This document shows positions 27,136-62,203 of a stretch of 64,000 nt of DNA, in pieces (the stretch's first letter is position 1; every line of letters begins with the position of its first letter). The notes under the pieces are model-generated. The model was given only the letters and a program-made list of their open reading frames with translations. It had not been told where the DNA came from and searched no databases. This stretch comes from an uncultured virus (IMG/VR IMGVR_UViG_3300031949_000021) (Duplodnaviria > Heunggongvirae > Uroviricota > Caudoviricetes): the IMG/VR virus record IMGVR_UViG_3300031949_000021; one strand, given 5' to 3'. Position numbers and translations under genes: made by a program.

Positions 27136-27771
27136 CTATCTTATCTTTTTCTTTAGCTCATATAACTTGAGACAGTAATAAAAAATACTCCAATAATCCT
27201 TCAATTCTTTTGCAGATACAGACCTTTCCTCAAATCCTTCCGATGGGTCTCTTCCTATTCTGATTATTTTAAACTTTTTAGGTTTGTGACCATTCTCTTT
27301 AAGAAGTTGTACGTATGCTGCTACTTGAGAAAACATTTCACTATATATTGCCTTTCCTGTCTTAAAATCTACTAAAGCATCTACACCATCTATATTACAA
27401 AATAAATCTATTGTGCCACCATAAAAATATTTAGCAGAAGCCATCTGCTCTTCTATAAGTATTGGTGTAATCTCATGCTCATCATTCCAGGAATAAAATG
27501 ACTTGAGAGAATTTTCAGCCAATTTTATTTGATTCTTAGAATAATCATCTGTATTACATTCAGTACCCTCAAAATAGTGCATTACCATTTCGTGGGCAAG
27601 AGTACCTATCTCGGCTGCCTCATTTACATATTTAGTTGTGTCTATCCCCTTTAATCCCATTCTGTTAGCCCAGGGGATTAAATTTGGCTTATTAAGTACA
27701 CCTAAAATAGTAGTTACTCCAGCAACCCTTTTATTTTCTACCATATATCTAGTATGTGCTTTTACTTTCAT
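27136..27771 (-). CDS. PD-(D/E)XK exonuclease (Cas4/RecB-like)
   Basis: GVTTILG, GTLAH, GGTIDL, VDFKTGK, QVAAY. Confidence 0.85.
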   Translation of the reverse strand: MKVKAHTRYMVENKRVAGVTTILGVLNKPNLIPWANRMGLKGIDTTKYVNEAAEIGTLAHEMVMHYFEGTECNTDDYSKNQIKLAENSLKSFYSWNDEHEITPILIEEQMASAKYFYGGTIDLFCNIDGVDALVDFKTGKAIYSEMFSQVAAYVQLLKENGHKPKKFKIIRIGRDPSEGFEERSVSAKELKDYWSIFYYCLKLYELKKKIR

Positions 27772-28337
27772 CTGTTACACCTCCAGTGCAGGTTTTTAAT
27801 AATGCTATAAACAGTGCCTTTAGATATGCCTAACTGTTTAGAAATATAACGATCAGAATAGCCTTGATTTTTTAATCTTTTTGTCTTTTTAACTTGGCTA
27901 TGAGTAATTGTAGCTTGAGGATGGTCTTTCCCTTTTGCGTGCTGTATTAAACCTAATTTATGTGCATGATCACTATTTTGCTTATGCGTTACATATTCAA
28001 GATTATTATAAATATTATTTATTTTAATCCCATCTTTATGGTTAATTTCTTTCCCCTTTGGGCAGGGGCCAATAAAAGTACTTGCTATGAGTTGATGTAC
28101 TTTAAATCTATATCTAGTATTATTTTTCCAAAGATCTACATATGCATAGCCATTTGAACTTACCCAAGGACTGAGTAATCTACCTATTTGTGTTGCTACT
28201 CCTGGGAGCACTCTTTTAACTCGACCATAATTAGATATAGCATAAGCTGGAAAATCTTTTAAGATAGTCCATTGCTCTTCATCTATAGGAACTCTTCTTT
28301 TTTCTACCCTATACTGCGCATGAGCTTTTGTTTTCAT
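27768..28337 (-). CDS. NUMOD4-HNH homing endonuclease
   Basis: YAISNYGRVK, VHQLIASTF, INHKDGIKINNIYNNLEY, C-terminal HTH. Confidence 0.9.
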   Translation of the reverse strand: MKTKAHAQYRVEKRRVPIDEEQWTILKDFPAYAISNYGRVKRVLPGVATQIGRLLSPWVSSNGYAYVDLWKNNTRYRFKVHQLIASTFIGPCPKGKEINHKDGIKINNIYNNLEYVTHKQNSDHAHKLGLIQHAKGKDHPQATITHSQVKKTKRLKNQGYSDRYISKQLGISKGTVYSIIKNLHWRCNR

Positions 28338-28705: not shown

Positions 28706-31432
28706 TTATACCGCCAACCTTTTTTTCTTTTCTACCTCAGCTACAAGAGGAACTTTTAACTTAATTACATTTTCCATTATTGAACGCATTTTAGGAGCTG
28801 TGTCATCTGCAACCGAATCATGAACATAAAGAACAATTTCATCATGTACGTCCAAAGGCATAAATATCTTCTTTTCATCAACTAGTTTTTCATATAATGC
28901 TGCAAGAGCCATCTTATTAATATCTCCTGTTGCAGGAGATTGTATTTTAAAATTAACTGCTTGTCTTAATGCTTCTTCTCTAATCCATTTATTATTACTA
29001 TAAACTTCTGGAATTCTTCTACGCCTTCCAGTAATAGAGGTAACATATCCTTTTCTAACTAATTCTTGTTTTGATCTTTCAATAAACTCATATACTCTAG
29101 GTGCTCTCAAAAAATACTTATCAATTTTATCTTGTGCTTCTTTTTCAGTACAATCTAATTTTAATGCTAAAGCATATGCTGATAACCCATAGGCAATTCC
29201 AAAATTTATTTCTTTGGCTGCATTCCTTTCATCCTTAGTAATTTTATCGTAGGATATTCCAAACATCTCGGAAGCAACTAATTTGTGTGTATCTAAATCC
29301 CCTTTTATAAAACCAGCTATAAGAAACTCTTCTCCACTACAGTGAGCCAACATGCGGATCTCCAGTTGGCTATTTGAACTTATAACCCCACAAGATAAGG
29401 CATAGTTTTTATCAGGAAAAACCCCTATAGAGTATACCTTTTCTTTTTTGTTGGTATTTTTAACACTAACTACTTTATGATTAAATCCAACAAGAATAGC
29501 ATTGTGATAGCATTTCCTAGAACAATACTTTTGTTTTTGGCAGGGGAAGGAATGAAATTTTTTACCACAGTATAAACATTCAGTATTATGCTCTTTCCCC
29601 CCTCTCCAATTTGCATTATTTTTACCTTCTCTAGACTTCCAATTAGAGATGCTTTCTATGTGTTTTTTCTTTCTATGCTTATGATCTTGTTTTTTATAAT
29701 TTTCTTTTGAATGAGAAGAAAGATGTTGATGCTTTTTTCTATACTCTAAATTACTAGGAAGATTATTTAATTTATTTTCGTCTTTATGGTGGGTATGAAA
29801 CCCTTGGGGCAATTCCCCTAATACTGCTTCAGCTACAATTCTATGCTCTTTACTATATTCAAAAGCACTATGACAATACAAATGAGCATAACCATTTCGT
29901 TTATTTATTATCTTTTTAATTGGCATAATTCTATCATTTATCTGTAAATCTTTTATTCGTTTTTTATCCCCTGAAATAAGGAGTATCTTATGCTCTCCTG
30001 TGCCGCGTATTATTTCTCCGTTATCCAATAAGACTTCCCAAATCTCTGCTTCTCCAGTACAAAAAGACTGATTAACTTCTCCTACTGCTGGTTTTCTATT
30101 CCTGTAAGTAAACACCTTATCTCCAACTTTAATATCTTTGATTGGAACATCACCATTTACTGTTTTAACTAAAGTGTCCCCAGTTAAACAAAAGTCAGCA
30201 GACAATATCCAAAAACCTTCTGGAGCTATTATAGCATGTTTTATAATTTTTGCATACTTATACATTAAGTCATTTTTATCATCCATTTCTTTCTTTAAAT
30301 TCTGAAAGTTTGGGTTACTACTATTTAATCTTGCTGTAACTGTTAATGCTCCTGAAAAACTTGGATATATTCTACCGTCAGGCATTAAATGTTCCTCAGT
30401 AAAGGGAACAAGATACATTTTCTTTATTTGATCTAAAGACCTATATAGTAGAATCTTATCTATTAGTTTTGTATCCTTTTTGTTTTTAACTAAATCTTTT
30501 CTTAACAATTCCAGTGTTGGAGTACTTGTTGATGCTTTTTTATTTCCTGATTTTCCCCCTTTTGTTTTTCCTTTAGCAGCATATTTTAGTTTGGTATACA
30601 GCACTTCTCTCATTTGTGGGGGGCTTCTAAGATTAAAGTCTGTTTTAGCTAATCTCTTAATATCAGATTCTAAAATATTCACATCTTTTTTTACTTCTTC
30701 TCTACTTTCAATTAAATAATCAACATCAATAGCTGATCCTGTACGTTGCATATGAGCTAATGCTGGTATTGTTGGAATTTCTATGCCATTAAATACTCTC
30801 ATTAGATTTTGTTTCTCTAACTCTGGAAGGTAAAATTCTGATAAGTAGTAACAGGCTATTGAATCATTACAACCGTACTTTATTCTTTCATTAAGAGAAT
30901 ATTCTTTAATGTCTTTATCTTCAAAATCTAAAATATCATATTGCCAATCTAGATACTTCCATATAAGAGGTTTTAATGGAAGACCTTTTTCTTTAGACCC
31001 TATTCTATAGTCTTTAAGTCCTCCACGTAAATCATTTTCATCATATTCCCTTGCCATAATTTGAGTATCCCAAATGGGTTGTTGCATATCTATTTTGTGT
31101 TTATAAAAAACGTTTATATCAAATGGGGCATTATGAAGTATCTTGATTTTCTTTTTGTCTTCAAGAATACTTTTCAAAAATTTGTCTACTCTTTTAGTAA
31201 ACTTATTATCCTCATCAAGTTTTTCTATCCAAATAGCATGATATGGGAAGTAAATAGAAACACCAAACATTGTTGTAAATTTTACATGAACTCTATGCAA
31301 CTTATCTTGTCCAGTTGTTTCAGTATCAATAGCAAATTTATTGACATTAGCTAACATATACTGCTCTATTTTATCTATTTGCTCTATAGTTGTTAGGTGA
31401 TGATACTTAATTTTATTTAAGGGTATTTGCAT
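28706..31432 (-). CDS. polA: Family A DNA polymerase (3'-5' exonuclease plus polymerase) interrupted by an intein
   Basis: AIDTETTG, HNAPFD, TARLNSSNPNFQN, SADF|intein|SQLEIR, RNAAKEINFGIAYG, VHDEI. Confidence 0.95.
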   Translation of the reverse strand: MQIPLNKIKYHHLTTIEQIDKIEQYMLANVNKFAIDTETTGQDKLHRVHVKFTTMFGVSIYFPYHAIWIEKLDEDNKFTKRVDKFLKSILEDKKKIKILHNAPFDINVFYKHKIDMQQPIWDTQIMAREYDENDLRGGLKDYRIGSKEKGLPLKPLIWKYLDWQYDILDFEDKDIKEYSLNERIKYGCNDSIACYYLSEFYLPELEKQNLMRVFNGIEIPTIPALAHMQRTGSAIDVDYLIESREEVKKDVNILESDIKRLAKTDFNLRSPPQMREVLYTKLKYAAKGKTKGGKSGNKKASTSTPTLELLRKDLVKNKKDTKLIDKILLYRSLDQIKKMYLVPFTEEHLMPDGRIYPSFSGALTVTARLNSSNPNFQNLKKEMDDKNDLMYKYAKIIKHAIIAPEGFWILSADFCLTGDTLVKTVNGDVPIKDIKVGDKVFTYRNRKPAVGEVNQSFCTGEAEIWEVLLDNGEIIRGTGEHKILLISGDKKRIKDLQINDRIMPIKKIINKRNGYAHLYCHSAFEYSKEHRIVAEAVLGELPQGFHTHHKDENKLNNLPSNLEYRKKHQHLSSHSKENYKKQDHKHRKKKHIESISNWKSREGKNNANWRGGKEHNTECLYCGKKFHSFPCQKQKYCSRKCYHNAILVGFNHKVVSVKNTNKKEKVYSIGVFPDKNYALSCGVISSNSQLEIRMLAHCSGEEFLIAGFIKGDLDTHKLVASEMFGISYDKITKDERNAAKEINFGIAYGLSAYALALKLDCTEKEAQDKIDKYFLRAPRVYEFIERSKQELVRKGYVTSITGRRRRIPEVYSNNKWIREEALRQAVNFKIQSPATGDINKMALAALYEKLVDEKKIFMPLDVHDEIVLYVHDSVADDTAPKMRSIMENVIKLKVPLVAEVEKKKRLAV
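29372..30190 (-). mobile_element. Intein (273 aa) with HNH endonuclease and zinc finger in polymerase motif A
   Basis: Starts CLTGDT, block B TGEHKI, HHKDENKLNN..NL, CLYC..CSRKC, ends ISSN/S. Confidence 0.9.
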
Positions 31433-34124: not shown

Positions 34125-34808
34125 ATGCCAAGGAAATATTCCTTAAATGAAAACTATTTTGAGACTATTGATACACAAGACAAAGCTTATTGGCTTGGTT
34201 TTTTAATGGGGGATGGCTCTGTCAGTAATAATTATTTGCAATTACATCTTAAAAATACAAGAGAAAATAAAAGACACATAGAAAAATTTTTATGGTATTT
34301 ATCTGCTAATTATAGATTGTATTATCGAGATAATTATGGATATTCTTTAGTTGGGGTAGGTATTACTTCTAATAAGTTAACTAGAGATTTAATAAATCAC
34401 GGAATAGTTCCTAGAAAAACATATAAAGCAATTTTTCCTATTATTGATGAGCATTTGAATAGGCATTTTATCCGAGGATTATTTGATGCAGATGGGTGTT
34501 TTAGTCAAAATAAAGCTTCTTTTGTTGGAAATAGAGAACTTATGGAACAATTAGAAGGGCTATTTGATTTTTTAAGAATTAAATCTAAAATAAGACAAGC
34601 GGGCATTAGTAGGGCTTTTGAATTAGGGATAACTCATTTTGATAATTTGCAACCCCTTTATGAATATATGTACACAGATGCTACTATCTATTTACCGAAC
34701 AAGCACACTAAATTTCATAATTATATTAAAAGAGGAATAAGAAGAAGAAAAAAGGAATTTAAGAAGATAAAACTAATGAATAAAGAAAATACTTTACCAT
34801 ATTTTTAA
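34125..34808 (+). CDS. LAGLIDADG homing endonuclease
   Basis: AYWLGFLMGDGSV and HFIRGLFDADG. Confidence 0.9.
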   Translation: MPRKYSLNENYFETIDTQDKAYWLGFLMGDGSVSNNYLQLHLKNTRENKRHIEKFLWYLSANYRLYYRDNYGYSLVGVGITSNKLTRDLINHGIVPRKTYKAIFPIIDEHLNRHFIRGLFDADGCFSQNKASFVGNRELMEQLEGLFDFLRIKSKIRQAGISRAFELGITHFDNLQPLYEYMYTDATIYLPNKHTKFHNYIKRGIRRRKKEFKKIKLMNKENTLPYF

Positions 34809-35015: not shown

Positions 35016-35609
35016 ATGTCAGGTAAAAAGGTAAAAGCACCTAATGGAAGCACAGTAGAATTAAAAGGAAAAGAAGAAGTAGATTTTTTTCTACATAAAA
35101 TGGAAGAATATAGGGAATTTCAATCTGAACATCCTAATGATATGGATATTTTAACTCAGATGATTTATTTGCAAACTCTTAATTTTCGCTATATGTCGAT
35201 GCTTACCAAGTTTGATGATACAGAAATTGACGAGATAAAAGAAATAAATAGAATCGTTAAAGATAATGTAAACGCCATAAATAGTTGCGCGGATAGTTTA
35301 CAGATAAGTAAAAAGTATAGAGATAGTAAAAGAGGATCTATAGCAGATTATATAAATGAGTTAGAGGAAAAGGCATTAATATATAAAGAAGAACTAATTG
35401 ATAAAACAGCAGATAAAGCTATTTCAAATATGATGAAGATAAAAACTATTTTACGATTAAGAAAGGTTTGTGACCAGGAGGAACGCTTTAAATTAAAAAT
35501 ACCTTCAGATGAAGATATTTTTCTGCTCATTGAAAACCTAATAAAGGAATTTGAAGAACTAGATAATGCTTTTATAGAAGAACAGCAGCATTGGTGGTTG
35601 AGTGAATAA
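35016..35609 (+). CDS. Putative terminase small subunit
   Basis: Helical protein whose stop overlaps the TerL start; positional inference. Confidence 0.5.
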   Translation: MSGKKVKAPNGSTVELKGKEEVDFFLHKMEEYREFQSEHPNDMDILTQMIYLQTLNFRYMSMLTKFDDTEIDEIKEINRIVKDNVNAINSCADSLQISKKYRDSKRGSIADYINELEEKALIYKEELIDKTADKAISNMMKIKTILRLRKVCDQEERFKLKIPSDEDIFLLIENLIKEFEELDNAFIEEQQHWWLSE

Positions 35610-38600
35610 TGCTTGAACCATTAACAAAAAAACAAAAAGCTTTATTACAAATATTAAGAAGTGATATCTATGCCCCTCAATTTTTATGGAAGGATAAAGA
35701 TGGTGTAAACGTCTATCGTGTTTATGATTATCAATACTATTTTGAAGATAGTAACTATGGGGGTATGGCTATATTTAGTGATGCAAGATCGGTAGGAAAA
35801 TGTATTGCTGAAGGAACTAAAATATTAAATCCAATAACAGGTGATTATAAAAAGGTAGAGGATTTAAATAATCAAACTATTCCTGTAGTTTCAATTGATA
35901 TTAGTAGATTGAAAGTTGAGCAAGCAAAAGTTTTTTCAAATGGGGTTAAAGATTGTTATAGATTAAAACTTAGATGGGGAAGAGAAATTGAAGCCACTGC
36001 AAACCATCCTTTTTATACTTTGGGTGGTTGGAAAAAATTAAAGGACATACACCCCGAAGAATATATTGCTGCTCCTATGGAAATGCCTTATTTTGGAAAA
36101 GAAACATTAAAAGATGATGAAGTTAAGTTTTTAGCCTATATGATTGGTGATGGGAATTGCATAGACCCAAACTGTAGATTTACTAATGCTAATCAAGAAA
36201 TAGTAAAAGAGATGAATGACATATTAGCATATTTTGACTGTCTTTTAGTTAAAGAAAAAACAAGGGACTATGAATATAGGATACAGGGTAATAAGTTTTA
36301 TAAAAATAATCCAGCAAGAATGTTTTTAAGACAGCATAAAGTTTTTAATAGGTATAGTTATCAGAAAACTGTTCCAGAGGCCATTTTTAAACTAAAGAAA
36401 AAACAGATCGCTTTATTTATAAACAGGTTATTTTCATGTGATGGTTGGGCTGTACAAACTGAAGAGGGCTATGGAAGAGTGGAGTATGGGACTTCTTCTA
36501 AGGAATTAGCTTATGATTTACAACATTTATTATTAAGATTTAGCATAATTTCTTCTATTAGTAAAAAGAAGACATCTCATAGAGATAGTTATACAGTTAG
36601 TGTGTCTAGTTTTGATAACATTAAATTTATGAAAGAGATTGGAATATTCACTAAACAAAAAAAATACAAAAAGAACCATAAAAACCGTAGGAGGGAAGAA
36701 AAACTAGCCCATGGCTCTAGAGGAAGTATTGTTTGGGGAAATCTTAGGTGGATGAAAGTAAGAGATATAAAATATATCGGTAAGTTGAAAACATATAATT
36801 TAACTGTTGAAAACACACACAATTTTATTGCCAATGATGTTTTATCCCATAATACGGAAAAATTAAAACGTAGATCGTTTACTATGCCATTTAGAAAACC
36901 TGGTAAAAGTAGGATGATATCTACTCCACAAGAAGCTCATTTAAATCCAGTAATGGAACAAATAATAGATAAATTTGAAGAAATAAGATTAACTAAAGAG
37001 TTTATTAAAAGAGCTAGAAGAAAACCTTATTATCATATCACATTTAAAAATGGAACAGAAATAATAGGTAAAATACCAGGGAATAAGGGCATTAATGTAA
37101 AGGGAGAACATGTAGATGAAGAAGCTGTGGATGAATGTGGTAGTGGGGTAGCTTATGTTTCTTTGGCAGACGGATCAAGTAAAAAATTAGGCGAAATTGT
37201 AAGAAAAAAGCTATCCTTAGAAGTAATATCCTATAATTTTTTTAATAGAAAAATAGAAACGAAGAAAGTAATTAATTGGTTTAAAAAGAAACCAACAGAT
37301 AGTTGTAAGTTTTTAAGGGTGGGATTTAAAAATTACTATTACAGGCCAAAATTTACTGGAGATCATAAGTTTGCTACAAAAGATGGGTGGGTTAAGGCCA
37401 GGGATTTAAAATCTGGAGATTTAGTTTATAGTAATGTGCCCAAGCCTACAAAATTGCAGCAAGGTATTCTTTTAGGGAAACTACTTGGGGATTCTTACGC
37501 TTTTAGACAACAATCTTGTAGTAAAGGAAATAAAAGAATAGTACCCAATGCTAAGATTGTTATTTCTCAAGGATCTAGGGATAAAGAGTATGTATTTGAT
37601 TGTTGGAATTTATTGCAAGGATTAGTTAAGGGAATTCCTTTAACAAGAGAAAATTTAGGTTGGGGGAAAGAATTAACTAAGTTTAAAACTAGGGCATTAC
37701 CTGAAATTACTAAATTGTATAATCTAGTTTATAAGGATGGTAGAAGAACAATAACACAAGAGCTATTAGAGAAATTATCTCCAGCAGCAATTGCTTTTTG
37801 GTTTATGGATGATGGTAGTTGTAGTCAAGGGACGTTTACTTTATCAACACACTGTTTTACAAAGGATGAAAATCAACTTATAGTGGATTATTTTTTAGCT
37901 ACATGGGGAATACCCATGAAAATGAAGTTAGATAAAAGATGCAATAAGTATTATTTAAAAAGTAATGGAAAACCACAAAGATTATTTGCGCTTATTGCTC
38001 CTTATGTTTGTAAGTCAATGAGAAGGAAATTACCAGCGGGCTATAAATGTGGGCAGTTATTGCCAGATAAAGAGGAGACTAAGATTGGTTTTTTGGAAGT
38101 TGAAACTGTTGAGGAATTAGATTTGAAATCTTGGGGTTTTGGAGACAATTTTCTTTATGATATTGAAGTAGAAGATAACCATAACTATTTTTCTCAAGGA
38201 AGTTTAGTTTCTAACAGTCAAGATTACCCCGATGAGGGCTGGGAGAATATTCGTGAATGTTTAAATGAGGTTTTAGATAAGGAATTAATTACTTATGGAG
38301 TACCTAATGGGGTAAGAAATACTTTTTTTAATTTTACTAGAAGTAAAGAATTTACAAAAGTAGTTATTCCAGCTATGTATAAACTTTCATGGGGAGAAAA
38401 AGAAAGAAGTGAAAAGATAGCTTTTTATGGTAGTCGGCGTGCTCCTGGATATGTAAGAAATATATATGCGGAGCATGGTGATGCGGAACATTTAGTTTTC
38501 ATACCATCTAAATTAAGTAATGGAATTGATTGGGGCAAAAAGCAATCAGATGGAACTTATGATAAGGATAAACCAAAATTTACCGAAGATTATATAAAGA

Positions 38601-39322
38601 TATCTATTATAAATGAAGAAGTAAATCGTAATATGTCCTTTAAACACTATCTTCGCTTTCCAGAAATACATAAAAAGTATGAGAGAGTTTGGGTAGGTGC
38701 TGATATAGCACATCAAGGAGCAGACCCCACAGAAATACTTATTTGGGCAGAAGAGGTATATAAAAATAAAAATAGGGTGCGTTTAATTTGTAGGGTACAC
38801 TGTGAAAGATTAACTGATGAGGATCAAGTAGATATTTTTCAAGAAATTTATAAGTTTTATAATGTAACAGGTATGGCTATGGATGCTACGGCAAGAGGAG
38901 GCACTATTTGGCAAAAATTAAATAATAGAAAATTAGGGAACGTTTATCTATCAGGATATAATTTCAAGTCTGTAAAAGAAGTAGGAAAAGATGAAAACGA
39001 TAAGCCAATAAATATTCAAATTAATCAGTTAGCAATTGAAACATTAAGAAACATGTGTGATCACATTGAATTTTTATTGCCTTATGATGAAGAAATAATT
39101 TCTGATTGGATGGGATTAAAAGTTAAGCCATTAGAATACGGAAAATTTAAGGTTGTAGATGAGGCAAAGTTTAAAACCCACACTCTCTATGCAGCAGGAA
39201 TGATGGCATTACAAAGAGATGACTATAGAATGGGAAAACTACAAGAAGATGCAGATTCAGTATATGAAGAAGGAGGATGGGTGGACGGTCATTATGGAAG
39301 AACACCAGGAGCATCAAGATAA
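35609..39322 (+). CDS. terL: Terminase large subunit with two inteins
   Basis: Walker A ARSVGK|T, Walker B VDE|SQD, YGVPNG, nuclease motifs VGADIA..DPT and MDAT. Confidence 0.9.
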   Translation: MLEPLTKKQKALLQILRSDIYAPQFLWKDKDGVNVYRVYDYQYYFEDSNYGGMAIFSDARSVGKCIAEGTKILNPITGDYKKVEDLNNQTIPVVSIDISRLKVEQAKVFSNGVKDCYRLKLRWGREIEATANHPFYTLGGWKKLKDIHPEEYIAAPMEMPYFGKETLKDDEVKFLAYMIGDGNCIDPNCRFTNANQEIVKEMNDILAYFDCLLVKEKTRDYEYRIQGNKFYKNNPARMFLRQHKVFNRYSYQKTVPEAIFKLKKKQIALFINRLFSCDGWAVQTEEGYGRVEYGTSSKELAYDLQHLLLRFSIISSISKKKTSHRDSYTVSVSSFDNIKFMKEIGIFTKQKKYKKNHKNRRREEKLAHGSRGSIVWGNLRWMKVRDIKYIGKLKTYNLTVENTHNFIANDVLSHNTEKLKRRSFTMPFRKPGKSRMISTPQEAHLNPVMEQIIDKFEEIRLTKEFIKRARRKPYYHITFKNGTEIIGKIPGNKGINVKGEHVDEEAVDECGSGVAYVSLADGSSKKLGEIVRKKLSLEVISYNFFNRKIETKKVINWFKKKPTDSCKFLRVGFKNYYYRPKFTGDHKFATKDGWVKARDLKSGDLVYSNVPKPTKLQQGILLGKLLGDSYAFRQQSCSKGNKRIVPNAKIVISQGSRDKEYVFDCWNLLQGLVKGIPLTRENLGWGKELTKFKTRALPEITKLYNLVYKDGRRTITQELLEKLSPAAIAFWFMDDGSCSQGTFTLSTHCFTKDENQLIVDYFLATWGIPMKMKLDKRCNKYYLKSNGKPQRLFALIAPYVCKSMRRKLPAGYKCGQLLPDKEETKIGFLEVETVEELDLKSWGFGDNFLYDIEVEDNHNYFSQGSLVSNSQDYPDEGWENIRECLNEVLDKELITYGVPNGVRNTFFNFTRSKEFTKVVIPAMYKLSWGEKERSEKIAFYGSRRAPGYVRNIYAEHGDAEHLVFIPSKLSNGIDWGKKQSDGTYDKDKPKFTEDYIKISIINEEVNRNMSFKHYLRFPEIHKKYERVWVGADIAHQGADPTEILIWAEEVYKNKNRVRLICRVHCERLTDEDQVDIFQEIYKFYNVTGMAMDATARGGTIWQKLNNRKLGNVYLSGYNFKSVKEVGKDENDKPINIQINQLAIETLRNMCDHIEFLLPYDEEIISDWMGLKVKPLEYGKFKVVDEAKFKTHTLYAAGMMALQRDDYRMGKLQEDADSVYEEGGWVDGHYGRTPGASR
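35801..36853 (+). mobile_element. Intein 1 (351 aa, LAGLIDADG) in TerL Walker A
   Basis: CIAEGT start, ATANHPF, LAYMIGDG, LFSCDG, SHN/T end. Confidence 0.93.
37136..38215 (+). mobile_element. Intein 2 (360 aa, LAGLIDADG) in TerL Walker B
   Basis: CGSG start, TGDHKF, LGKLLGDS, AFWFMDDG, YDIEVEDNHNY, VSN/S end. Confidence 0.9.
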
Positions 39323-39435: not shown

Positions 39436-39999
39436 TTGTTAGTGAATACTATAAGGAAAAAGATGAATAATTCTTTACCTAAACCAGATAAAAATTTAAG
39501 GGTTTCAAAGAAAAAACATAAAAAATATGCTAAGTCTACATTAAGAAAATATTGGAAGGATAGTGAAAGAGATTTAGGAACTTTTATGCTAAATCACGAT
39601 GAACCAGACCCTAAATTTGCTCCTGCTTTAAGCTCCCGCGGAAGAATCGGCCATATCACGGGTTTAGAAATGGATACTGTAACAATGAACTGGGTAGGAG
39701 AGAACAAGCAAGTTGAATCAATGCCAAAGTGGTTAATAAAAGCAATTCTTAAAATAATGCAAAGAGCAAAAGATTATGATAGATTTCCTTTATTAAGATT
39801 AGATATTACACAAGAGTTATCAGGCCATGATAGACGAAAAATGTTTAATCCAAAAGATAAACCAGTAGAGCAGTTATCTCAAGTGGAACAAAGACTAGTT
39901 AATAATGATATGAGATTAAAGAGATTACCTGATTTAGCAATTATTCCTTTAGACATATTAGGGGAATTAATGGAGAAGAAAGCAAGGGAAAGTAACTAA
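39436..39999 (+). CDS. Putative PD-(D/E)XK nuclease/resolvase-like protein
   Basis: WKDSER...MD......GENK pattern; weak. Confidence 0.35.
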   Translation: MLVNTIRKKMNNSLPKPDKNLRVSKKKHKKYAKSTLRKYWKDSERDLGTFMLNHDEPDPKFAPALSSRGRIGHITGLEMDTVTMNWVGENKQVESMPKWLIKAILKIMQRAKDYDRFPLLRLDITQELSGHDRRKMFNPKDKPVEQLSQVEQRLVNNDMRLKRLPDLAIIPLDILGELMEKKARESN

Positions 40000-40270
40000 C
40001 CTCGGGGCAAGCCCCAAGGCTTTCTAACAGCCTTATAGTTACCAGACCACTAATAGGAGGTAAGAGTTGTTAGTAAACGATAGGAAAGAAATTAGGAACG
40101 GAAGTGTGCCACACCAGCACCCCCCTCTTCGAATACAGATTAAACATTGCTGTGAGGTAGGCAAAGTGTCTGTATTGTCAAACCTTTCCATATCTGGTCG
40201 AGGTGAAGATGAATTCAACAGTAGCTCCAATACTGTTGATACACACTACTCTAACATACAGGAGGTCATA
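39992..40270 (+). ncRNA. omegaRNA scaffold of IscB #1
   Basis: About 280 nt directly upstream of iscB; GTAACTA/TAGTTAC closing stem enclosing GGGGC-AA-GCCCC and GGCT/AGCC hairpins; TTAAACA and GGTCGAGG motifs near the 3' part. Confidence 0.8.
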
Positions 40271-40275
40271 AAGAC

Positions 40276-41508
40276 ATGGTGTATGTAATTAATAAGAATA
40301 GCAATCCTTTAATGCCTTGCTCAGAAGCAAAAGCTCGTAAACTTTTACGAGATAAAAAAGCAAAATGTGTTAAAAGAAACCCTTTCATAATTAAACTTTT
40401 GTGGGATTGTGAAGAAAATACTCAGAAAGTAGTTGCTGGTATGGACACAGGCAGTAAAACCATTGGTTGTGCTGCTATTTCTAATGGAAAAGTAGTATAT
40501 CAATCAGAAGTGCAAGTAAGACAAGATGTTTCTAAAAAGATGGGGCAACGTAGAATGTATCGTAGAAACAGACGTAGTAGAAAAACAAGATATAGAAAAT
40601 CTCGTTGGCAAAATCGTGCTTCAATGAGAAAAGAAAATCGTTTGGCTCCCAGCATTAAATCTAAGATTGACTCACATTTAAGAGAGAAGCGGTTTGTAGA
40701 GTCTATATTGCCAGTATCACGCTGGCGTGTAGAAATAGCAAGTTTTGATATTCATAAGATTTCCAATCCCAATGTAAAGAGATGGGAATATCAAGAGGGT
40801 ACTCAAAAAGATTTCTATAACACTAAGGCATATGTTTTACATCGGGATAAATATCTATGTCAACATTGTAAAGGTAAGTTAAAAGACAAAAGGTTACACG
40901 CACACCATATTGTATTTAGAAGCAAAGGAGGAACCAACAGCCCTGACAATTTGATTACTTTATGCAAATCTTGTCACAATAGCCTACATAAGGGTGAATT
41001 TGAAATCAAGGGGATAAAGAGTAAGACAAAACACGTCACAGAAATTAGTATTGTGAAATCTCAATTAAAAAAACAATTTAGTAACTTTGAAGAAGTATTT
41101 GGCTATCAGACTAAACTCAAACGGGAACAAGTATTAAAATTACCTAAAACTCATTGGTCAGACGCTATTGCTATCTGTTGTGTAGAAGGAGAGTATGTTG
41201 ATCCTGATGGAATAGTTTACTATAAAAAGCACGTTTCTAAAGGGGATTATCAACAGACTAAAGGTAACCATTCTGAAAAGAAAATACCCACAGGGAAATT
41301 GTTTGGATTCCGTAAATTTGATTATATTCAAACACCCAAAGGAATTGGGTTTATAAAAGGCAAACGCAGTACAGGATTTTTTGCAATATCGGATTTAGCT
41401 GGAAAAGCCATAAGCGGATCAGTATGTATAAAAAAGAATTGTAATAGATTAAACGCAAGAACAACAACTTTAATTGAAAGGAGAGTGGCACATTCCTCTC
41501 CACTATAA
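40276..41508 (+). CDS. iscB: IscB RNA-guided endonuclease #1 (IS200/IS605 OMEGA)
   Basis: PLMP domain, RuvC-I GMDTG, Arg-rich bridge helix RRNRR, RuvC-II E..SFD, HNH (CQHC..HH..GGTN..NL..LC..CH), RuvC-III HWSDA. Confidence 0.95.
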   Translation: MVYVINKNSNPLMPCSEAKARKLLRDKKAKCVKRNPFIIKLLWDCEENTQKVVAGMDTGSKTIGCAAISNGKVVYQSEVQVRQDVSKKMGQRRMYRRNRRSRKTRYRKSRWQNRASMRKENRLAPSIKSKIDSHLREKRFVESILPVSRWRVEIASFDIHKISNPNVKRWEYQEGTQKDFYNTKAYVLHRDKYLCQHCKGKLKDKRLHAHHIVFRSKGGTNSPDNLITLCKSCHNSLHKGEFEIKGIKSKTKHVTEISIVKSQLKKQFSNFEEVFGYQTKLKREQVLKLPKTHWSDAIAICCVEGEYVDPDGIVYYKKHVSKGDYQQTKGNHSEKKIPTGKLFGFRKFDYIQTPKGIGFIKGKRSTGFFAISDLAGKAISGSVCIKKNCNRLNARTTTLIERRVAHSSPL

Positions 41509-41537
41509 GCAGATGGGGTATCCTGTGCCTAAATTTT

Positions 41538-43205
41538 ATGGGTGAGAAAAAAGAAGAAATAGCTAAGGATGAAGAAATTAATTGGGAAAAAGTAACTGGA
41601 GCATTTGTAGAAGATATGTCTCTTTCTACAGTAAGCACAATAAATGCTTTTAGAAGTACACAGTATCAAAAAGCGGAAGATTTATCTATTTATGACAAGA
41701 TGAAACTAGCAGGGTCTTATTTTACTACGGATAATATAGTACAAAATTGTTTTACTAGTCAAGTTTCGATGGCTTTTAATAGTCTTGAGCATAAAACAGT
41801 AAAAGACCCTACAAATTTATATAAGGATTTTTATGACTATTTAGCTAGAAGGTTAAATTTAAGGGCACTTTGCAGAATGTTTTATTTGTGCTCTTTAGTT
41901 TATTCTAATGTTTATATGCTTCAATTTTGGGAAGAGGTAGAAGTCCCTTGGGGAGCAAAGGCAAAGAAAGTTTTAACTATTCCTACGGAAATAACTTTGG
42001 TAGACCCAAGATATGGTAGGGTTTTAGGATCAACACTAAAGTACAATAGAAAAATTGGGATGCGGATTTCTAGAGAGGCTTACAATGATTATACGGCAGA
42101 AAATCTAAATGAGTTAAATGAGCAATATGCTAAAGACATATTTATAGGCAAATATGACTATAAGAATAAATATAACTACCGCAAGGATAACGGATTAGAG
42201 TATGGTGATGAGGTACTAGAGTTTAATCCTGAAGTGACTTCTCATTTTAAGTTTAGGGGACAAGATTTTAATAGGTATGCTACACCAATAATGGCAAATT
42301 GTTTTGATTGGATTCAGCGCAAAAAGAAACTAATGGAAGCTGATATGGCTGTTATTGATGGAATTATAAATATGATTTATCTTTTTACTATTGGAACAGA
42401 TGATCATCCAGCCAAAGGAAAAGGAGAACTTAACAAACTAGCAAGTCTAATTCAAAATACTTCTAGAACCTGTACATTAGTTTGGAACCACAGATTAAAA
42501 GTAAGTGTCATTTCTCCTGATGCAGATTCTTTATTGAATACAGATAAATATCATGTCTGTAACGATAATATTCGTGAAGGTCTGGGTTTTGAATTTAAAA
42601 ATACAATGAGTAGAGGACGAAGGGATATTGATAAGCTAATAAAGATTTTTTGTGAGGTTATCCTTTCTGATAGGCAGGATATTGTAGAGCATATTGAAAA
42701 AAATATATATGAAAAAGTTGCGGAAGAAAATAACTTTTACACATCAGCTTCAATGAAACCAAACAGAATTGGATTAGCAACTGATGATTTGTTAAAAGCA
42801 TTTGTTGGACTGTTTTATGACAGAGGTTTGCCTTCTAAGAGAACCACTATGGAGATTATGGGTCTTGATTATGATGAGGAAAAAGAATTAAAAATACCCG
42901 AAAAGAAAGATGTAGAAGAGGGTATTTGGGATATTCCTCAGTTGCCCTTTAGTCGGCCACAAACAGGTGGAGGTAAAGAGCAAAGTCAGGCAGATTTTAT
43001 TCCTATTGATATGTCAGTAGATAACTATTTAGACATTATTAATTCTGAAGTTAAAAAACCAGAGGTACATCAAGTTATTAAAGAAAAATTGCAAGATAGG
43101 CTAGGAGACTACTTTTCAGAAGAAGCACAAAATGACGAGGACTTAGATAAGCTAGTTAAAGATACAGCTAAAAAGTATGAAAAGAAAAAGAAGAGGGATA
43201 AATAA
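41538..43205 (+). CDS. Portal protein
   Basis: 555 aa between terminase and head genes; RYATPIM..CF, LFTIGTDDHPA, LVWNH. Confidence 0.75.
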   Translation: MGEKKEEIAKDEEINWEKVTGAFVEDMSLSTVSTINAFRSTQYQKAEDLSIYDKMKLAGSYFTTDNIVQNCFTSQVSMAFNSLEHKTVKDPTNLYKDFYDYLARRLNLRALCRMFYLCSLVYSNVYMLQFWEEVEVPWGAKAKKVLTIPTEITLVDPRYGRVLGSTLKYNRKIGMRISREAYNDYTAENLNELNEQYAKDIFIGKYDYKNKYNYRKDNGLEYGDEVLEFNPEVTSHFKFRGQDFNRYATPIMANCFDWIQRKKKLMEADMAVIDGIINMIYLFTIGTDDHPAKGKGELNKLASLIQNTSRTCTLVWNHRLKVSVISPDADSLLNTDKYHVCNDNIREGLGFEFKNTMSRGRRDIDKLIKIFCEVILSDRQDIVEHIEKNIYEKVAEENNFYTSASMKPNRIGLATDDLLKAFVGLFYDRGLPSKRTTMEIMGLDYDEEKELKIPEKKDVEEGIWDIPQLPFSRPQTGGGKEQSQADFIPIDMSVDNYLDIINSEVKKPEVHQVIKEKLQDRLGDYFSEEAQNDEDLDKLVKDTAKKYEKKKKRDK

Positions 43206-51255: not shown

Positions 51256-52938
51256 ATGGCAGAGATTAAGGTAACAATTCCAGATGATAAAATTGCAAAG
51301 GTGATTGACTCATTTGTTAGTTGCTTTGGTTATCAAGCAACAATAGACGGGCAACCAAATCCGCAGACAAAAACACAATTTACTAAAGCACAGATAATTA
51401 AATACATAAAAGCTGTTGTAAATTCAGTTGATAAAACTGCTTATGATCAGAACTTTATACAAGAAGATATTAGCATAACTTAAAAAGGAGAAATAAATGG
51501 GTAGGATATATTTAATTTTACTAGGAATTATTTTGGTATTTGGGTTATTTATGTTTTCGGGGCAAATTAGAAAACAAAATAGCTGCCTTACAAAAATTGA
51601 AGATAGAGTAGTAAAACTAGAGAGAGTAAATAAAAATAAAGTAGAAGCAAACAAGATTTTAAGGAGCAAGATTGAAGAATTAGAATTTAATTCCAAAGAC
51701 CATATAGATAGAATATATGATATGGAAGGTCATGTTGATGACTATAATCTAATTCTTGAGATGGTTTTGAAGCATCCCACAGTGCAAACAGAACTTGCAA
51801 AACATAATATACCTATTCAGAAACTTCTTGATGATAGGGCAAAAGCAGAAGAACAACATTAAAAGGAATAAATATGTCTGTTACAATTATAAAAACCGTA
51901 AATTTTGGAAAAAGTAAAACAGGTCTTGAAGGTACTGTTGGTTATACTCTTTATAATACTAATGAAACAGAAAAACAAGCACGTACAACTTCTGGTGTCT
52001 ATGAACTTGGAACTAGTACAGGAATATATGCTTGTAACATAACATTGGATATTGATTGGAATGGTACAATTCTTTGGGATACTGGGGAAGCAACACCAAG
52101 TTATGCTACAGAAGAGTATAATCATCAAGATGCTGGTGATATAGACCAGATAGAATCTAATACAAACAGAGGATTGATCACTTAGAAAGGAGATAATATG
52201 AACCCTGATTATAAAGTTGGGGAGTCTATTGAAGTTTTATATGTGCCTGGGAATTTTCAATCAGGTCAAACAGATTGTAAGGTAGACATATTTGATGAGA
52301 GTGATGTTATAGTTGCTGGGTCTCCTTTTGCTATGGTAGAAAAAGATGACGGGGCAGCTACACCCGAACTTATAGGGGTCTATGCCTATTCTTTTATCCC
52401 CGACGAAGAGGGTATTTGGACAGCTAAAGTTTATCGCTTAGTTGGAGGGGAAAAGAAATTTGCTAAAGTTATTAAGTTTAGCGTTAAACCAAAGGATATT
52501 TCTGATTTAATAGATGATGTTGAAGTTATTAAAGGAGCAAGTTTTAATTCTTTAACAGATTCTTTAGAGGCAATTAGAGATGCAGTAGATGAAATTTCAG
52601 AGGGAGGACAAGTATTATAACTTCTGAAAGGAGGATTAAGGATGGATTTCTTTAAGGAAAGAAAGAATGATTTAGCTAAGATAAAACAGGAAGTCGAAAA
52701 TATTATAGCTATTCGACAAAGTAAACTTAGTTTACTTGAAAAAGAGCTAAAAGATTTGTTGCTTGATAAGGCAAAAATTGAAGGAAGAATTGAGGAAGTA
52801 ATTTTACTAGATAAAAGTTTTAGTGAAAGTCCTGATAAGAAAAAGCCTAAAATATCTAGTGGAATTATAGATGGGGAAATGTCTGTAGAACAACTTATCA
52901 AGGCAAAACAAAAGACCAAAAAGAAGGAAGCCAAGTAA
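51256..52938 (+). other. Accessory late ORFs (51256-51483, 51497-51862, 51874-52185, 52198-52620, 52642-52938)
   Basis: Each preceded by an AAGGA(G) RBS. Confidence 0.7.
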
Positions 52939-53115
52939 TAAGTAATTACGGCTTCGAGGCTAAGTTGGGAAGTGACCAACTACGACTTCTGTTTATCCGA
53001 AAGGATAGTCACCTTGAGATTTATCCAGTCTCAAGCTCTGATAGTTTCTGAGAAAGCTCAAAGAAACTTAAACAGACAACAGACGGTCATTGCCGAGGAT
53101 AACAATAACTTTTAG
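52927..53115 (+). ncRNA. omegaRNA scaffold of IscB #2
   Basis: First stem GAAGCC..GTAAT/ATTAC-GGCTTC; CTAAG..CTACG; TATCC-GAAA-GGATA; TTGAGA/TCTCAA-GCTCTG; TTAAACAG; CATTGCCGAGG. Confidence 0.8.
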
Positions 53116-53128
53116 AAAGGTGACTTAA

Positions 53129-54307
53129 ATGTCAGTATTTGTAATTGATAGTAAAGGAAAGCCTTTACTTCCTACTTGTGAAGCAAGAGCAAGACTTTTA
53201 TTAAAAAAGAATAAGGCAACAGTATATTCAGTTGAGCCATTTACAATTAAATTAAAAAGGGCAATAAAAAATCCAATGGGTGGGTTTAAAGTAGGGATTG
53301 ATGATGGTGCAAAAGAGGTTGGAATATCAGTAGCCTATAAAAACAAGGTAGTTTTTGCTGGGATAATCAAGTTAAGACAAGATGTACATAGAAAGATGCT
53401 TCAAAGATCACAATATCGAAGAACTAGAAGATGTAGAAAGCTTAGACATAGAAAAGCAAGATTTTTAAATAGTGGCAGAAAAGGTTGGATACCCCCAACT
53501 ATAAAGCAAAAGAAAGAATCAATATTGAGAGTAATTGACGATTTAAAGAAGCGATTAAATATTACAGAAGGCACTATAGAACAAGGGCAGTTTGATACTT
53601 CTTCGATGAGTAGAGGGTATCAATTAATAGGAAAAGAATATCAATTATCAGAATATGTGGGAAATACTTGGAGACAAAAAGTTTTATGGCGAGATAAGTA
53701 TATTTGTCAACATTGTGATAGTAAAGAAGAATTACAAGCTCATCATATTATTTTAAAGTCTAAAGGTGGAACTAATAGAGTAAATAATGGAATTACCTTA
53801 TGTAAAAAATGCCATAAAGAGTTACATGAAGAAAGATGGGAATTAAGTAGAAAACCAAGACATTTTAAGTATCCAACTCATTTACAGCAGGGAAAACAAT
53901 ATTTATTTAATGAGTTAAAAAAGAGATTTCAAAGTATAGATGTTTGCTATGGTTGGATGACGGCAAAAGCAAGGAAGGCATTGGGGTTAGAGAAAGAGCA
54001 TTATCACGATGCTTCTGCAATGATTGGGGCAAATAAATATTATTGTAAACTTTATATAATAAAACCAAAAAGGACTAAAATATGGGAAAACAACCCAACA
54101 AAGACTTGTAATGAAAAAAATGGTTTTAGGCATATGGACATAGTTAAAGCAAAACACAGAACTAGAGGTACTGTTATTGGATCAATAAGGAGTTTGAAAG
54201 CTAAAGTAATAACATTAAGAACAAGTTTTGACGATAACTTTTCTGTAAGTTATAACAAAACAAGATTATTATGGAGACCTAAAGGTTTAATTTATTGTAG
54301 AAGTTAA
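53129..54307 (+). CDS. iscB: IscB RNA-guided endonuclease #2
   Basis: PLLP, RuvC-I GIDDG, RRTRR, E...FD, HNH (CQHC..HH..GGTN..NGITLC..CH), HYHDA. Confidence 0.95.
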   Translation: MSVFVIDSKGKPLLPTCEARARLLLKKNKATVYSVEPFTIKLKRAIKNPMGGFKVGIDDGAKEVGISVAYKNKVVFAGIIKLRQDVHRKMLQRSQYRRTRRCRKLRHRKARFLNSGRKGWIPPTIKQKKESILRVIDDLKKRLNITEGTIEQGQFDTSSMSRGYQLIGKEYQLSEYVGNTWRQKVLWRDKYICQHCDSKEELQAHHIILKSKGGTNRVNNGITLCKKCHKELHEERWELSRKPRHFKYPTHLQQGKQYLFNELKKRFQSIDVCYGWMTAKARKALGLEKEHYHDASAMIGANKYYCKLYIIKPKRTKIWENNPTKTCNEKNGFRHMDIVKAKHRTRGTVIGSIRSLKAKVITLRTSFDDNFSVSYNKTRLLWRPKGLIYCRS

Positions 54308-54314
54308 AAGGGAG

Positions 54315-54935
54315 GTGAAAAATATGGCGATTTACAAAAGTGGTGTAGCTATTGAAGTAAGATATGCCCCACCAGATTTTCAAAGTGGTTTAAGTGATGT
54401 AAAGATGGAAGTATATGATGAGGCAGGTGTCGAAATTGCTGGTAGTCCTTTTTCTATGACAGAGATGGATGATGGTGCTGCAACACCAACACTATTAGGT
54501 GTTTATGAGGACACATCTAATTTTTTACCTGATGCACAGGGATCTTGGACAGTTATTTGCTACTCTATTGCTAATGGTGGGAAAACAGCTAAGACTTACA
54601 AAATTGAAGCTCATGATATTGATGATCTTGGTACAGATTTGGATACAATTATAGCTGATACTAATGAATTACAGACAGATTGGGCAGATGGTGGTAGACT
54701 TGATCTTCTTATTGATGCAATTAAGGCTCAAACAGACTTGTTACCTTCTGATCCAGCAGATCAATCAGCAGTAGAAGCAGCAATAACGGCAGCTCATGCA
54801 ACTACAGATGGTTTAATTACTACAGTTGATGGAGTTGTAGATGGTATTCAGACGGATTTAAGTAATGGAACAGATGGCTTGGGAGCAATTAAGGCTGCTG
54901 TTGACGCAATCGGTACTGGAGGAATAATTCTCTAA
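54315..54935 (+). CDS. Virion protein, paralog of 52198-52620
   Basis: Shared IEV.Y.P..FQSG, AGSPF.M.E.DDGAATP.L.GVY and a similar C-terminus. Confidence 0.7.
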   Translation: MKNMAIYKSGVAIEVRYAPPDFQSGLSDVKMEVYDEAGVEIAGSPFSMTEMDDGAATPTLLGVYEDTSNFLPDAQGSWTVICYSIANGGKTAKTYKIEAHDIDDLGTDLDTIIADTNELQTDWADGGRLDLLIDAIKAQTDLLPSDPADQSAVEAAITAAHATTDGLITTVDGVVDGIQTDLSNGTDGLGAIKAAVDAIGTGGIIL

Positions 54936-58341: not shown

Positions 58342-59121
58342 ATGAAAAGGAGTGAAAACTTAGTGCGGAATGATTTAACTAAGGAAGTTATTTGTAAAAA
58401 ATATGTGGAAGAAAAGAAGTCTATTAATAAGATTAGTGAAGAACTAAGGTCATCTCATACCACAATAGCTAATAGGTTAAAGACTTATGGGCTAGAAATA
58501 AGAGATTATCATAGATTTAACGAATTTGATAAAGAATTTTTTGCACAAAATTATGTAAAAAATGAAAAATCTTCAAAAGAAATTGCAAAAGAGGTTGGAG
58601 TATCTCAAGGAGCTATTTTAAATCGGCTTAGAAAACATAATATAGATATTAGAAAAAGAGAATCTAAGGATATCAAATTAACCGAAACACAAAAAGCATA
58701 TATAGCTGGTGTAATAGATGGAGAAGGTTGTATTTGTTTATATAAAAGTAATTCTAGGCATATATTATGTGTATCCTTTACATCAACAGATAAAAGATTG
58801 ATAGCCTATTTATCTAAATTGCTAGATTGGAATTTTGCTTATACAAAGCCTAAAAATAGGATATGGAAAACTTCTTATAGATTACAGGCAATGGATTCAA
58901 GATCAGAAAGAGCTTTAAAAGATATACTACCTTATTTAATTATTAAAAGAGAACAGGCAGAATTAGCTTTAAGATTTAGGGAGACTTATAAGATTAAATA
59001 TCCTAAAAGAAAAGGGATACCTAAAAATATTTGGGATTTAAGAGAATCCCAAGAAAAACAGATGCATATTCTTAATAAAAAAGGTGCATCAAATAAACCT
59101 ATTGAAAAGGAGGTTATTTAG
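58342..59121 (+). CDS. LAGLIDADG endonuclease with two N-terminal HTH repeats
   Basis: AYIAGVIDGEGCI, ILPYLIIKREQA; two YV.EKKS..I.....G.S...I.NRL repeats. Confidence 0.88.
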   Translation: MKRSENLVRNDLTKEVICKKYVEEKKSINKISEELRSSHTTIANRLKTYGLEIRDYHRFNEFDKEFFAQNYVKNEKSSKEIAKEVGVSQGAILNRLRKHNIDIRKRESKDIKLTETQKAYIAGVIDGEGCICLYKSNSRHILCVSFTSTDKRLIAYLSKLLDWNFAYTKPKNRIWKTSYRLQAMDSRSERALKDILPYLIIKREQAELALRFRETYKIKYPKRKGIPKNIWDLRESQEKQMHILNKKGASNKPIEKEVI

Positions 59122-62178: not shown

Positions 62179-62203
62179 ATTGTTTGAGAGTGTGGTGATT
62201 AAA

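Follow-up and report, generated by a model that had tools for sequence, protein, structure and literature searches.

This analysis concerns an insertion element that encodes an IscB nuclease, IscB #1, and its omegaRNA in an uncultured virus (IMG/VR record IMGVR_UViG_3300031949_000021; Duplodnaviria, Heunggongvirae, Uroviricota, Caudoviricetes). The stretch analysed, referred to below as the window, comprises 64,000 nucleotides of a 73,427-bp contig. From approximately 34 kb onward its plus strand carries the late operon of a soil tailed phage, in which the terminase gene is followed by an open reading frame (ORF) for a protein of 187 amino acids (aa), termed ORF187, and then by iscB, the portal gene, and, past the portal, scaffold-like and major-head genes. 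A first-pass annotation, made from the letters alone, had singled out iscB as part of a candidate RNA-guided homing element lying seamlessly between its neighbors. That the locus is an IscB/omegaRNA insertion element we now regard as practically certain; the manner in which it persists in the phage calls for more graded statements. The features on which the argument depends are as follows (TAM, target-adjacent motif).

39436-39999, plus strand: ORF187, a conserved phage ORF of 187 aa between terminase and portal, belonging to no Pfam or PHROG family
39972-39991, plus strand: inferred guide, GGAGAAGAAAGCAAGGGAAA, outside the element border and immediately 5' of HEARO position 1
39992-41537, plus strand: whole IscB/omegaRNA element, 1546 bp, an insert relative to related phages
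39992-40275, plus strand: omegaRNA scaffold, made up of the HEARO match (39992-40213) and conserved 3' hairpins that reach the start of iscB
40000-40019, plus strand: omegaRNA-side end hairpin, CCTCGGGG-CAAG-CCCCAAGG, the counterpart of CCACGGGG-CAAG-CCCCGTGG in the family
40261-40266, plus strand: ribosome-binding site AGGAGG, 9 nt before the iscB ATG, read from the sequence
40276-41508, plus strand: iscB (IscB #1), 410 aa, intact; Pfam RRXRR (E 1.2e-60) and HNH (E 1.7e-12)
41487-41529, plus strand: degenerate iscB-distal (TAM-side) end hairpin, with the outer stem GGCACA/TGTGCC retained
41538-41543, plus strand: flank motif ATGGGT, the inferred TAM, whose ATG is the portal start codon
41538-43205, plus strand: portal gene, 555 aa; PHROG 2739, portal protein (E 2.6e-9)

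The nuclease and the borders of its element

IscB #1 matches the chains of solved IscB structures (11hr_A, E 1.1e-35; OgeuIscB 7xht_A, E 1.2e-33) as well as PHROG 119 (E 3.9e-50). Like the proteins of the solved IscB-omegaRNA complexes (OgeuIscB; PDB 7utn, 7xht, and 11hr), it has RuvC and HNH motifs in the same domain order, over residues 1-326. The solved proteins are 495-496 aa in length compared with 410 aa for IscB #1, and the C-terminal 85 residues of the latter, which presumably read the TAM, are unaligned. The catalytic motifs that had been described as intact are all present, namely GMDTG (D57), VEIASFD (E153), HAHHI (H210/H211), NLITLC (N225), and HWSDA (H293/D296). Their assignment to RuvC-I, RuvC-II, HNH, and RuvC-III follows from the alignment to the structure chains together with the dIscB mutant D58A/H209A/H210A of Meers et al. 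Relatives of the protein are abundant: 6,821 of 8,000 scored candidates matched at E ≤0.001, and the best 119 matches other than itself are 71-78% identical and mostly 416-417 aa in length. The iscB reading frame is without frameshift at approximately 72% nucleotide identity to the family.

The end of ORF187 reads ..GCA AGG GAA A/GT AAC TAA, where the slash stands between positions 39991 and 39992 and the base that follows it is position 1 of the HEARO model. The scaffold thus starts within the closing codons of ORF 39436-39999 and provides its stop, as the first-pass annotation had proposed, and the final 8 bases of ORF187 (GT AAC TAA) are derived from the element. At the other side, the portal ATG follows the last base of the element without a gap, also as proposed, with homology to the family stopping at 41537, or at 41540 if the ATG is included.

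Related phages were retrieved with a portal alignment from Joint Genome Institute (JGI) metagenomes and from IMG/VR. The alignment was needed, since searching IMG/VR with one protein at a time, the portal protein or ORF187, yielded no relatives; no DNA-level relatives were found among a collection of cultured phages. Six distinct relatives were obtained, designated L006, L001 (equal to the contig of L007), L003 (equal to L008), L009, L005, and L004. Their ORF187 homologues are 73% (L006), 69% (L001), and 43-50% identical (L009, L003/L008, L005, and L004) to that of the window, and all lie directly upstream of the portal gene. The N terminus of the window portal protein aligns with those of L006 and L001, and in the case of L006 is 82-88% identical; among annotated proteins, the window portal protein is approximately 27% identical (tblastn) to the portal proteins of Bacillus phage Basilisk-like phages.

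In all six relatives the site is empty: the ORF187 homologue either runs up to the portal start or overlaps it, and no IscB1-like sequence lies between the two. An empty allele, which the first-pass annotation had suggested looking for, is thus found in every relative, and one exact position is polymorphic for presence or absence, with one filled copy (the window) against six of six empty. The junction of the closest relative, L006, reads ..GCT AGG AAA A/AT GAC TAA, the portal ATG lying inside AAT G. Joining the flanks of the window (39991 to 41538) gives ..GCA AGG GAA A/AT GGG TGA, which is the ancestral allele put forward in the first-pass annotation and has the same register, the same stop/start overlap, and the same position of the ATG as L006. 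In a computed alignment, the joined flanks run colinear and without gaps across the junction of both L006 and L001, as expected of an element that makes no target-site duplication.

The borders also emerge from homology to copies of the element in unrelated genomes. By blastn, the match between the window and L015, a contig of a metagenome-assembled genome (MAG) assigned to Syntrophaceae, runs from 39992 to 41537, or to 41540 with the ATG, and no further; that with L020, from a Parachlamydiales MAG, starts at 39989 and stops at the same right-hand limits. The borders are thus fixed in two independent ways, by the empty sites of relatives and by homology to family copies elsewhere. When contigs of one DNA run were placed on the locus, two short unrelated pieces were recovered and no bridging contig or joint. 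Identity between the window and L006 falls to 12-15 of 30 columns near the junction, compared with 21-25 of 30 further away. We weighed this dip as possible evidence of escape from cleavage and rejected it, because both proteins have variable tails.

Scaffold, guide, and start-codon flank

The Rfam HEARO model (RF02033) matches 39992-40213 on the plus strand over its full length (positions 1-211) with 89.3 bits, compared with a gathering score of 83 (E 9.3e-17), which bears out the covariance-model check recommended earlier. A full-length match above the cut-off, upstream of an HNH ORF and on the same strand, does not differ in kind from HEARO as it is defined in Rfam. Work by Weinberg et al. 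in 2009 reportedly placed HEARO insertions next to ATGA or GTGA. The RNAalifold consensus of seven family members contains 91 pairs, of which the window keeps 84; in 30 of the window's pairs both sides have changed relative to the majority. The omegaRNA-side end hairpin is likewise kept, with one compensated pair and one mismatch. The left end of the window copy, GTAACTAACC, where the family has GTAACCTACC, presents the upstream ORF with TAA after two codons, and its two altered bases are compensated in the first stem of the omegaRNA.

Because the element opens, on its left, with the first scaffold base, the flank 5' of it would be the guide, in agreement with the first-pass annotation. The guide segment would comprise approximately 16-20 nt and end in ..GAAAGCAAGGGAAA; allowing as many as 3 mismatches, the window contains the 20-mer GGAGAAGAAAGCAAGGGAAA only once. 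Where the element is present, the scaffold places GTAAC, and not ATGR, after the guide match. No promoter-like or terminator-like site was detected on the plus strand from 39231 to the portal gene. The omegaRNA would accordingly arise by read-through from the upstream gene of the same orientation, as Meers et al. argue for IscB elements at large, and the arrangement agrees with the orientation bias that they describe.

The flank at the opposite border can be compared across nine family elements (described in the next section). It is ATGAC in seven, ATGGC in one (L105), and ATGGG in the window copy, so that every flank is ATGA or ATGG; an ATGG-like TAM, as originally predicted, has support at the level of the family, with ATGG as the minority form. 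The empty site of L006 reads A/ATGACT and thus presents the ATGAC flank of the family. In GstIscB of Geobacillus stearothermophilus, the TAM, defined by experiment, is TTCAT and is located 5' of the left end, whereas the right end supplies the scaffold, with the guide beyond the border (Meers et al., bioRxiv 10.1101/2023.03.14.532601). The reverse complement of TTCAT is ATGAA, the same kind of motif as ATGR when written in the orientation of the iscB sense strand.

In six of the nine elements the ATG of the flank opens an ORF of at least 100 codons, as follows.

Window: portal gene, 555 aa
L020: at least 387 aa
L105: 351 aa
L075: 217 aa
L120 and L128: at least 100 aa each

The flank ATGs of the other three open ORFs of 7-12 codons only. 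Strings resembling Shine-Dalgarno sequences occur 4-14 nt before the insertion point in the window (AAGGG), L075 (GGAGG), L105 (AGGGG), and L067 (GAGGG), which indicates that these elements sit between the ribosome-binding site of a gene and its ATG. At the right end, the IscB stop lies 5 nt before the end of the element in seven of nine, and AAGGAG(G/A) is found just 5' of the terminal stem in all nine. The arrangement suggests that the displaced gene would be translated either by re-initiation after IscB or from the site carried by the element, brought near by the hairpin.

The element family, a second IscB, and other mobile genes

Copies of the family were found in the two unrelated MAGs mentioned above (L015, 76% identical at the amino acid level; L020, 72%) and in six further IMG/VR contigs (L067, L072, L075, L105, L120, and L128), all with shared termini. 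The six were reached with the 16-mer of the right end, which occurs in 98 IMG/VR stretches; 92 of these were set aside as coincidental, since no gene resembling that for IscB #1 lies within 2.2 kb of them. Family elements measure 1539-1546 bp and have the termini GTAACYWACC... and ...CCTGTGCCTAAWTTTT, both of which are common to seven full elements and the right one of which is also present in two partial elements. L015 and L075, a MAG contig and a viral contig, are 98.7% identical and occupy different sites; this shows the family to be mobile and that lineage to have been active recently. The 12-kb MAG contig of L015 might itself be viral. The window copy is 70-74% identical to every other copy found and therefore belongs to a separate, older lineage.

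The TAM-side end of the window copy has decayed. An 8-bp inner GC hairpin, CCACGGGG-CAAG-CCCCGTGG, is present at both ends of the family element, and at the distal end in the window it is destroyed, the sequence there being CACTATAAGCAGATGGGG; the same change creates the early TAA stop of iscB. The predicted DNA fold of this end has an energy of -6.5 kcal/mol (z -1.09), compared with -15.2 kcal/mol (z -4.06) for L015. In L020 the end is similarly degenerate (-7.7 kcal/mol, z -0.36), and iscB is broken, with three stops inside the match. TnpA excises only elements that are intact at both the left and the right end (Meers et al., bioRxiv 10.1101/2023.03.14.532601). Loss of the inner TAM-side hairpin would thus leave the window copy stranded, probably no longer excisable by TnpA, and we read it as a degenerate member of the IS200/IS605 type, whose elements have subterminal hairpins at both ends. 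For an element so stranded, restoration of the site after excision is an unlikely reason for the retention of IscB, which leaves action on other genomes, or decay.

The window has 78 ORFs of 90 aa or more, and a scan of 69 of them gave no match to Pfam Y1_Tnp; the other nine are nested in larger ORFs, either antisense to them or in a different frame, and approximately 9 kb of the contig falls outside the window. The statement that the window has no tnpA holds to this extent. Y1_Tnp likewise gave no match in the MAG of L020 or in three viral records that contain family elements, among which is the complete 96.9-kb genome, with terminal repeats, of a phage. The MAG of L015 contains eight Y1_Tnp matches.

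As its numbering implied, IscB #1 is not the only IscB of this phage.

52926-53108, plus strand: HEARO-like RNA of IscB #2 (51.4 bits, below the gathering score; E 6e-9)
53129-54307, plus strand: IscB #2, 392 aa, 37% identical to IscB #1
52926-54308, plus strand: IscB #2 element, starting within the last codons of ORF 52642-52938 and ending at its own stop

This second element is followed at once by the ribosome-binding site of the adjoining gene; no terminal hairpin is visible at this end, and the flank motif differs from ATGR. Related phage L001 has a copy of the same type (13497-14908) with 90% nucleotide identity (1211/1342). It is located between the capsid gene and a gene for a 141-aa protein, and in the window the same junction is empty. 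The portal and capsid proteins of L001 are 72% and 74% identical to those of the window, respectively. Elements 90% identical at different sites, set against the divergence of the phages themselves, imply that the elements move faster than the phages diverge, and to new sites.

A base-exact empty site for IscB #2 was not found; in the relative G001 a 140-aa gene is directly followed by a 134-aa gene, and the window's 98-aa ORF, IscB #2, and 206-aa paralogue are absent. The genes that flank the IscB #2 region (54315-54935 and 52198-52620, both plus strand) are N-terminal paralogues (MNPDYKVGESIEV.. and ..AIYKSGVAIEV..), of which G001 has one, and the 98-aa ORF, IscB #2, and the 206-aa paralogue, taken together, have the appearance of an additional block in the window.

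Similar units occur in other phages, cultured ones among them. HEARO matches above the gathering score lie upstream of IscB-like genes in Ralstonia phage Adzire (L150, 1182-2910; 120 bits) and Clostridium phage c-st (L151, 1241-2853; 140 bits), where the annotation of the genes goes no further than "HNH endonuclease"; in c-st there is, in addition, a match to RAGATH-18 RNA (64 bits) beside a transposase gene. L013 (G002:C1:20552-21031), on the 69-kb contig of L009, which has terminal repeats, is a 321-aa RRXRR ORF with no HEARO match at E ≤0.01, and may be an IsrB-like or truncated form.

The window phage is unusually rich in selfish nuclease genes, which are listed here with two further features.

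35609-39322, plus strand: large terminase with two inteins (Pfam Intein_splicing, LAGLIDADG_2, and LAGLIDADG_3)
21379-23481, minus strand: RecA with a LAGLIDADG intein
28706-31432, minus strand: family A DNA polymerase (PolA) whose intein has an HNH_3 domain
34125-34808, 58342-59121, and 62042-62965, plus strand: three free-standing LAGLIDADG_3 ORFs, one with helix-turn-helix (HTH) domains
27768-28337, minus strand: free-standing nuclease-like ORF, HNH_3/NUMOD4
60456-60890, plus strand: free-standing nuclease-like ORF, NUMOD3
18113-18428, plus strand: cluster of four tRNA genes
4320-5714, minus strand: homologue of the DNA polymerase III beta subunit (sliding clamp), 463 aa

The terminase of L001 consists of 523 aa and is free of inteins, which indicates that the inteins too are polymorphic among these phages. 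Taken together, inteins and free-standing LAGLIDADG and HNH genes imply frequent co-infection and recombination. The sliding clamp homologue has its third domain matched only at residues 401-460, and approximately 130 unmatched residues after the second domain could represent an insertion. A related phage contig, L008, contains a match to the manA RNA motif (5609-5820, plus strand) that is below the gathering score (35.5 compared with 55.2 bits; E 1.3e-5).

Persistence of the element in the phage

That IscB with its omegaRNA is an RNA-guided nuclease, that HEARO is omegaRNA, and that the nuclease targets the donor joint in a process of "restorative homing" have been published (Meers et al.; reviewed in PMC13565253). 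The closest characterized counterpart of the window element is GstIscB/ISGst5. Both are non-autonomous elements of IS200/IS605 type in which the omegaRNA lies upstream of iscB, the scaffold is one transposon end, the guide is outside the border, and the element-free junction is defined by the combination of guide and TAM. The TAM of GstIscB, ATGAA in reverse complement, is near to ATGR, and the orientation matches that of the upstream gene in either case (Meers et al.). The two differ in their circumstances. ISGst5 resides in a bacterial chromosome, has both ends intact and an active TnpA in trans, and is restored after excision within one cell, whereas the window element lies in a phage late operon where no TnpA was found, its TAM-side hairpin is degenerate, and its presumed target is a co-infecting genome.

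The reading that we favor, if only by a little, is that a non-autonomous IS200/IS605-type OMEGA (HEARO) element in the late operon persists by RNA-guided homing into sibling phages or by killing them. Its original arrival would probably have depended on a Y1 TnpA supplied in trans, as the presence of family members at many unrelated ATGR sites suggests. Read-through from the terminase/ORF187 side would produce an RNA with the guide as its 5' part, and IscB, translated from its own AGGAGG site, would bind this omegaRNA. The ribonucleoprotein (RNP) would recognize the flank only where ATGR directly follows it, that is, at the uninterrupted ORF187/portal junction of an element-free sibling. The phage's own genome, in which the guide match is followed by GTAAC and thus by no TAM, would be protected. 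A double-strand break between these conserved packaging genes could then be repaired from a co-infecting filled genome, copying the element in, or repair could fail, in which case the rival genome would be destroyed. A copy that has lost its inner TAM-side hairpin would depend on this nuclease route rather than on TnpA. Activity of the RNP on the reconstructed junction seems somewhat more likely than not; that homing between phages, or exclusion of siblings, is the function that maintains it is a proposition we consider evenly balanced.

In this respect the element resembles the free-standing homing genes of T-even phages, such as that for SegF, which is active in intronless homing: a nuclease gene stands between conserved genes and is polymorphic among relatives, and the empty allele is cut in co-infection and the gene copied in (PMC13565253), as is expected here. 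Unlike these, the window element has ends of transposon type and a target set by a guide RNA from the insertion flank rather than by protein-DNA contacts. An association of IscB with viruses is not in itself new, as more than 16% of HEARO-encoding fragments were reported to be viral or prophage-derived, with few of them associated with TnpA (Goltsman et al. 2022, PMC9755519). The passages that describe the virus-associated units of that study give no analysis of insertion sites, empty alleles, or homing. A full-text search of the literature, supplements apart, returned nothing that shows or analyses phage-to-phage homing of IscB or start-codon targeting.

A number of observations weigh against the favored reading. 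None of the empty alleles available could serve as a target for the window's guide, from which they have diverged too far: L006 agrees with it at 11 of its 20 positions (8 among the TAM-proximal 10) and L001 at fewer, and the exact reconstructed target (16 nt of guide followed by ATGR) has no match in 147 loci. With a single filled copy known, spread at this site cannot be shown. A G at position 4 of the TAM is the minority state, and ATGG as a working TAM rests on one other element, that of L105. The compensatory changes in the omegaRNA may predate entry into the phage. IscB #1 ends 6 codons short of the family norm of approximately 416 aa, its stop lies 29 nt before the portal ATG compared with the 5 nt of the family, and the portal's own ribosome-binding site is now 1.5 kb distant, such that the insertion may be costly. 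Finally, the movement of the IscB #2-type element is, judging from its sites and their identities, transposition-like and not homing, which tempers a homing interpretation. Two IMG/VR matches to the exact target were discarded as chance, their neighboring proteins being unrelated to ORF187 or portal and the string a purine-rich one of ribosome-binding site plus ATG.

Alternatively, the element could be an ordinary passenger insertion sequence, placed at ATGR in the single-stranded DNA of the replicating phage by a Y1 TnpA of the host, with no spread from phage to phage. IscB would then do in the phage only what it does in bacteria, namely restore its own site after excision, or would do nothing. 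The scatter of the family over many unrelated sites with the same ends and flank motif is in keeping with this, as are the near-identity of the L015 and L075 copies in a bacterial MAG and a viral contig, the eight Y1_Tnp matches in the MAG of L015, the different sites of the 90%-identical IscB2-type elements in two related phages, and the many family proteins on contigs of approximately 1.3-2 kb, as expected of repeated elements. The lack of a neighboring tnpA is in any case usual, since iscB adjoins tnpA in only approximately 1.5% of cases (Meers et al., bioRxiv 10.1101/2023.03.14.532601). Against it, the distance of the window copy from all others excludes a recent arrival from the active lineage, and its ORF and RNA structure are nevertheless intact; the hairpin needed by TnpA is gone, so that restoration cannot maintain IscB here, and no TnpA was found in the scanned ORFs or in the three viral records. 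On balance we think this explanation rather unlikely. The same lost hairpin, with an ORF 6 codons shorter, an ATGG flank in place of the majority ATGA, and the example of L020, in which a comparably degenerate end accompanies a broken iscB, could instead point to an inactive relic, a stranded and decaying element with no working RNP. A 410-aa ORF without frameshift and with every catalytic motif, a strong ribosome-binding site of its own, a HEARO match above the curated Rfam cut-off, and 84 of 91 consensus pairs kept, many by double changes, render a relic improbable.

Of a different kind is the proposal that the phage keeps the nuclease as a weapon that destroys element-free sibling genomes with little or no copying of the element. 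Its guide and flank logic is identical to that of homing, and nothing in the sequence distinguishes the two. The target would lie between two essential packaging genes, the degenerate end suggests an element fixed in place, and nuclease-mediated competition between co-infecting phages has been published (Birkholz et al. 2024, as cited in PMC13565253). Yet homology on both flanks (terminase/ORF187 and portal) would ease repair from the filled genome, and the absence of the element from all six relatives shows that it is not a conserved phage function; we consider a pure weapon to be no less improbable than a relic.

Homing or sibling exclusion remains our preferred account for this copy, and it leads to a broader and more tentative proposal, which we would put somewhat short of an even case, that the element belongs to a lineage of IscB and omegaRNA units turned RNA-guided homing endonucleases of phages, independent of any transposase. 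An ATGR TAM would direct landing exactly onto start codons, and the stops of the left end would close the upstream gene. As the right end sets the IscB stop 5 nt ahead of the ATG that it displaces, and carries AAGGAGG next to a terminal hairpin, translation of the downstream gene would restart from within the element. Insertion into tight phage operons could thereby be harmless, and retargeting would be automatic, the guide being whatever flank adjoins.

In bacterial cells, TnpB and IscB have been shown to carry out RNA-guided "restorative homing", and IscB/HEARO units are common on viral contigs. The locus described here provides a natural pair of filled and empty alleles with base-exact borders, a defined guide, a TAM supported by its family, and a copy that is apparently barred from the transposase route. 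It makes the question of spread from phage to phage directly testable, and its main value is as a natural test case. Landing on a start codon, with the IscB stop 5 nt before the ATG, may explain how such elements are tolerated in compact phage operons, and the flank habit of the family would be useful in predicting from sequence the guides and TAMs of uncharacterized compact IscB nucleases. Were the proposal for the lineage to be correct, these elements would drive through phage populations during co-infection and, with a second IscB family in the same phage clade, guide-RNA nucleases would constitute a general class of phage homing systems beside LAGLIDADG, HNH, and GIY-YIG.

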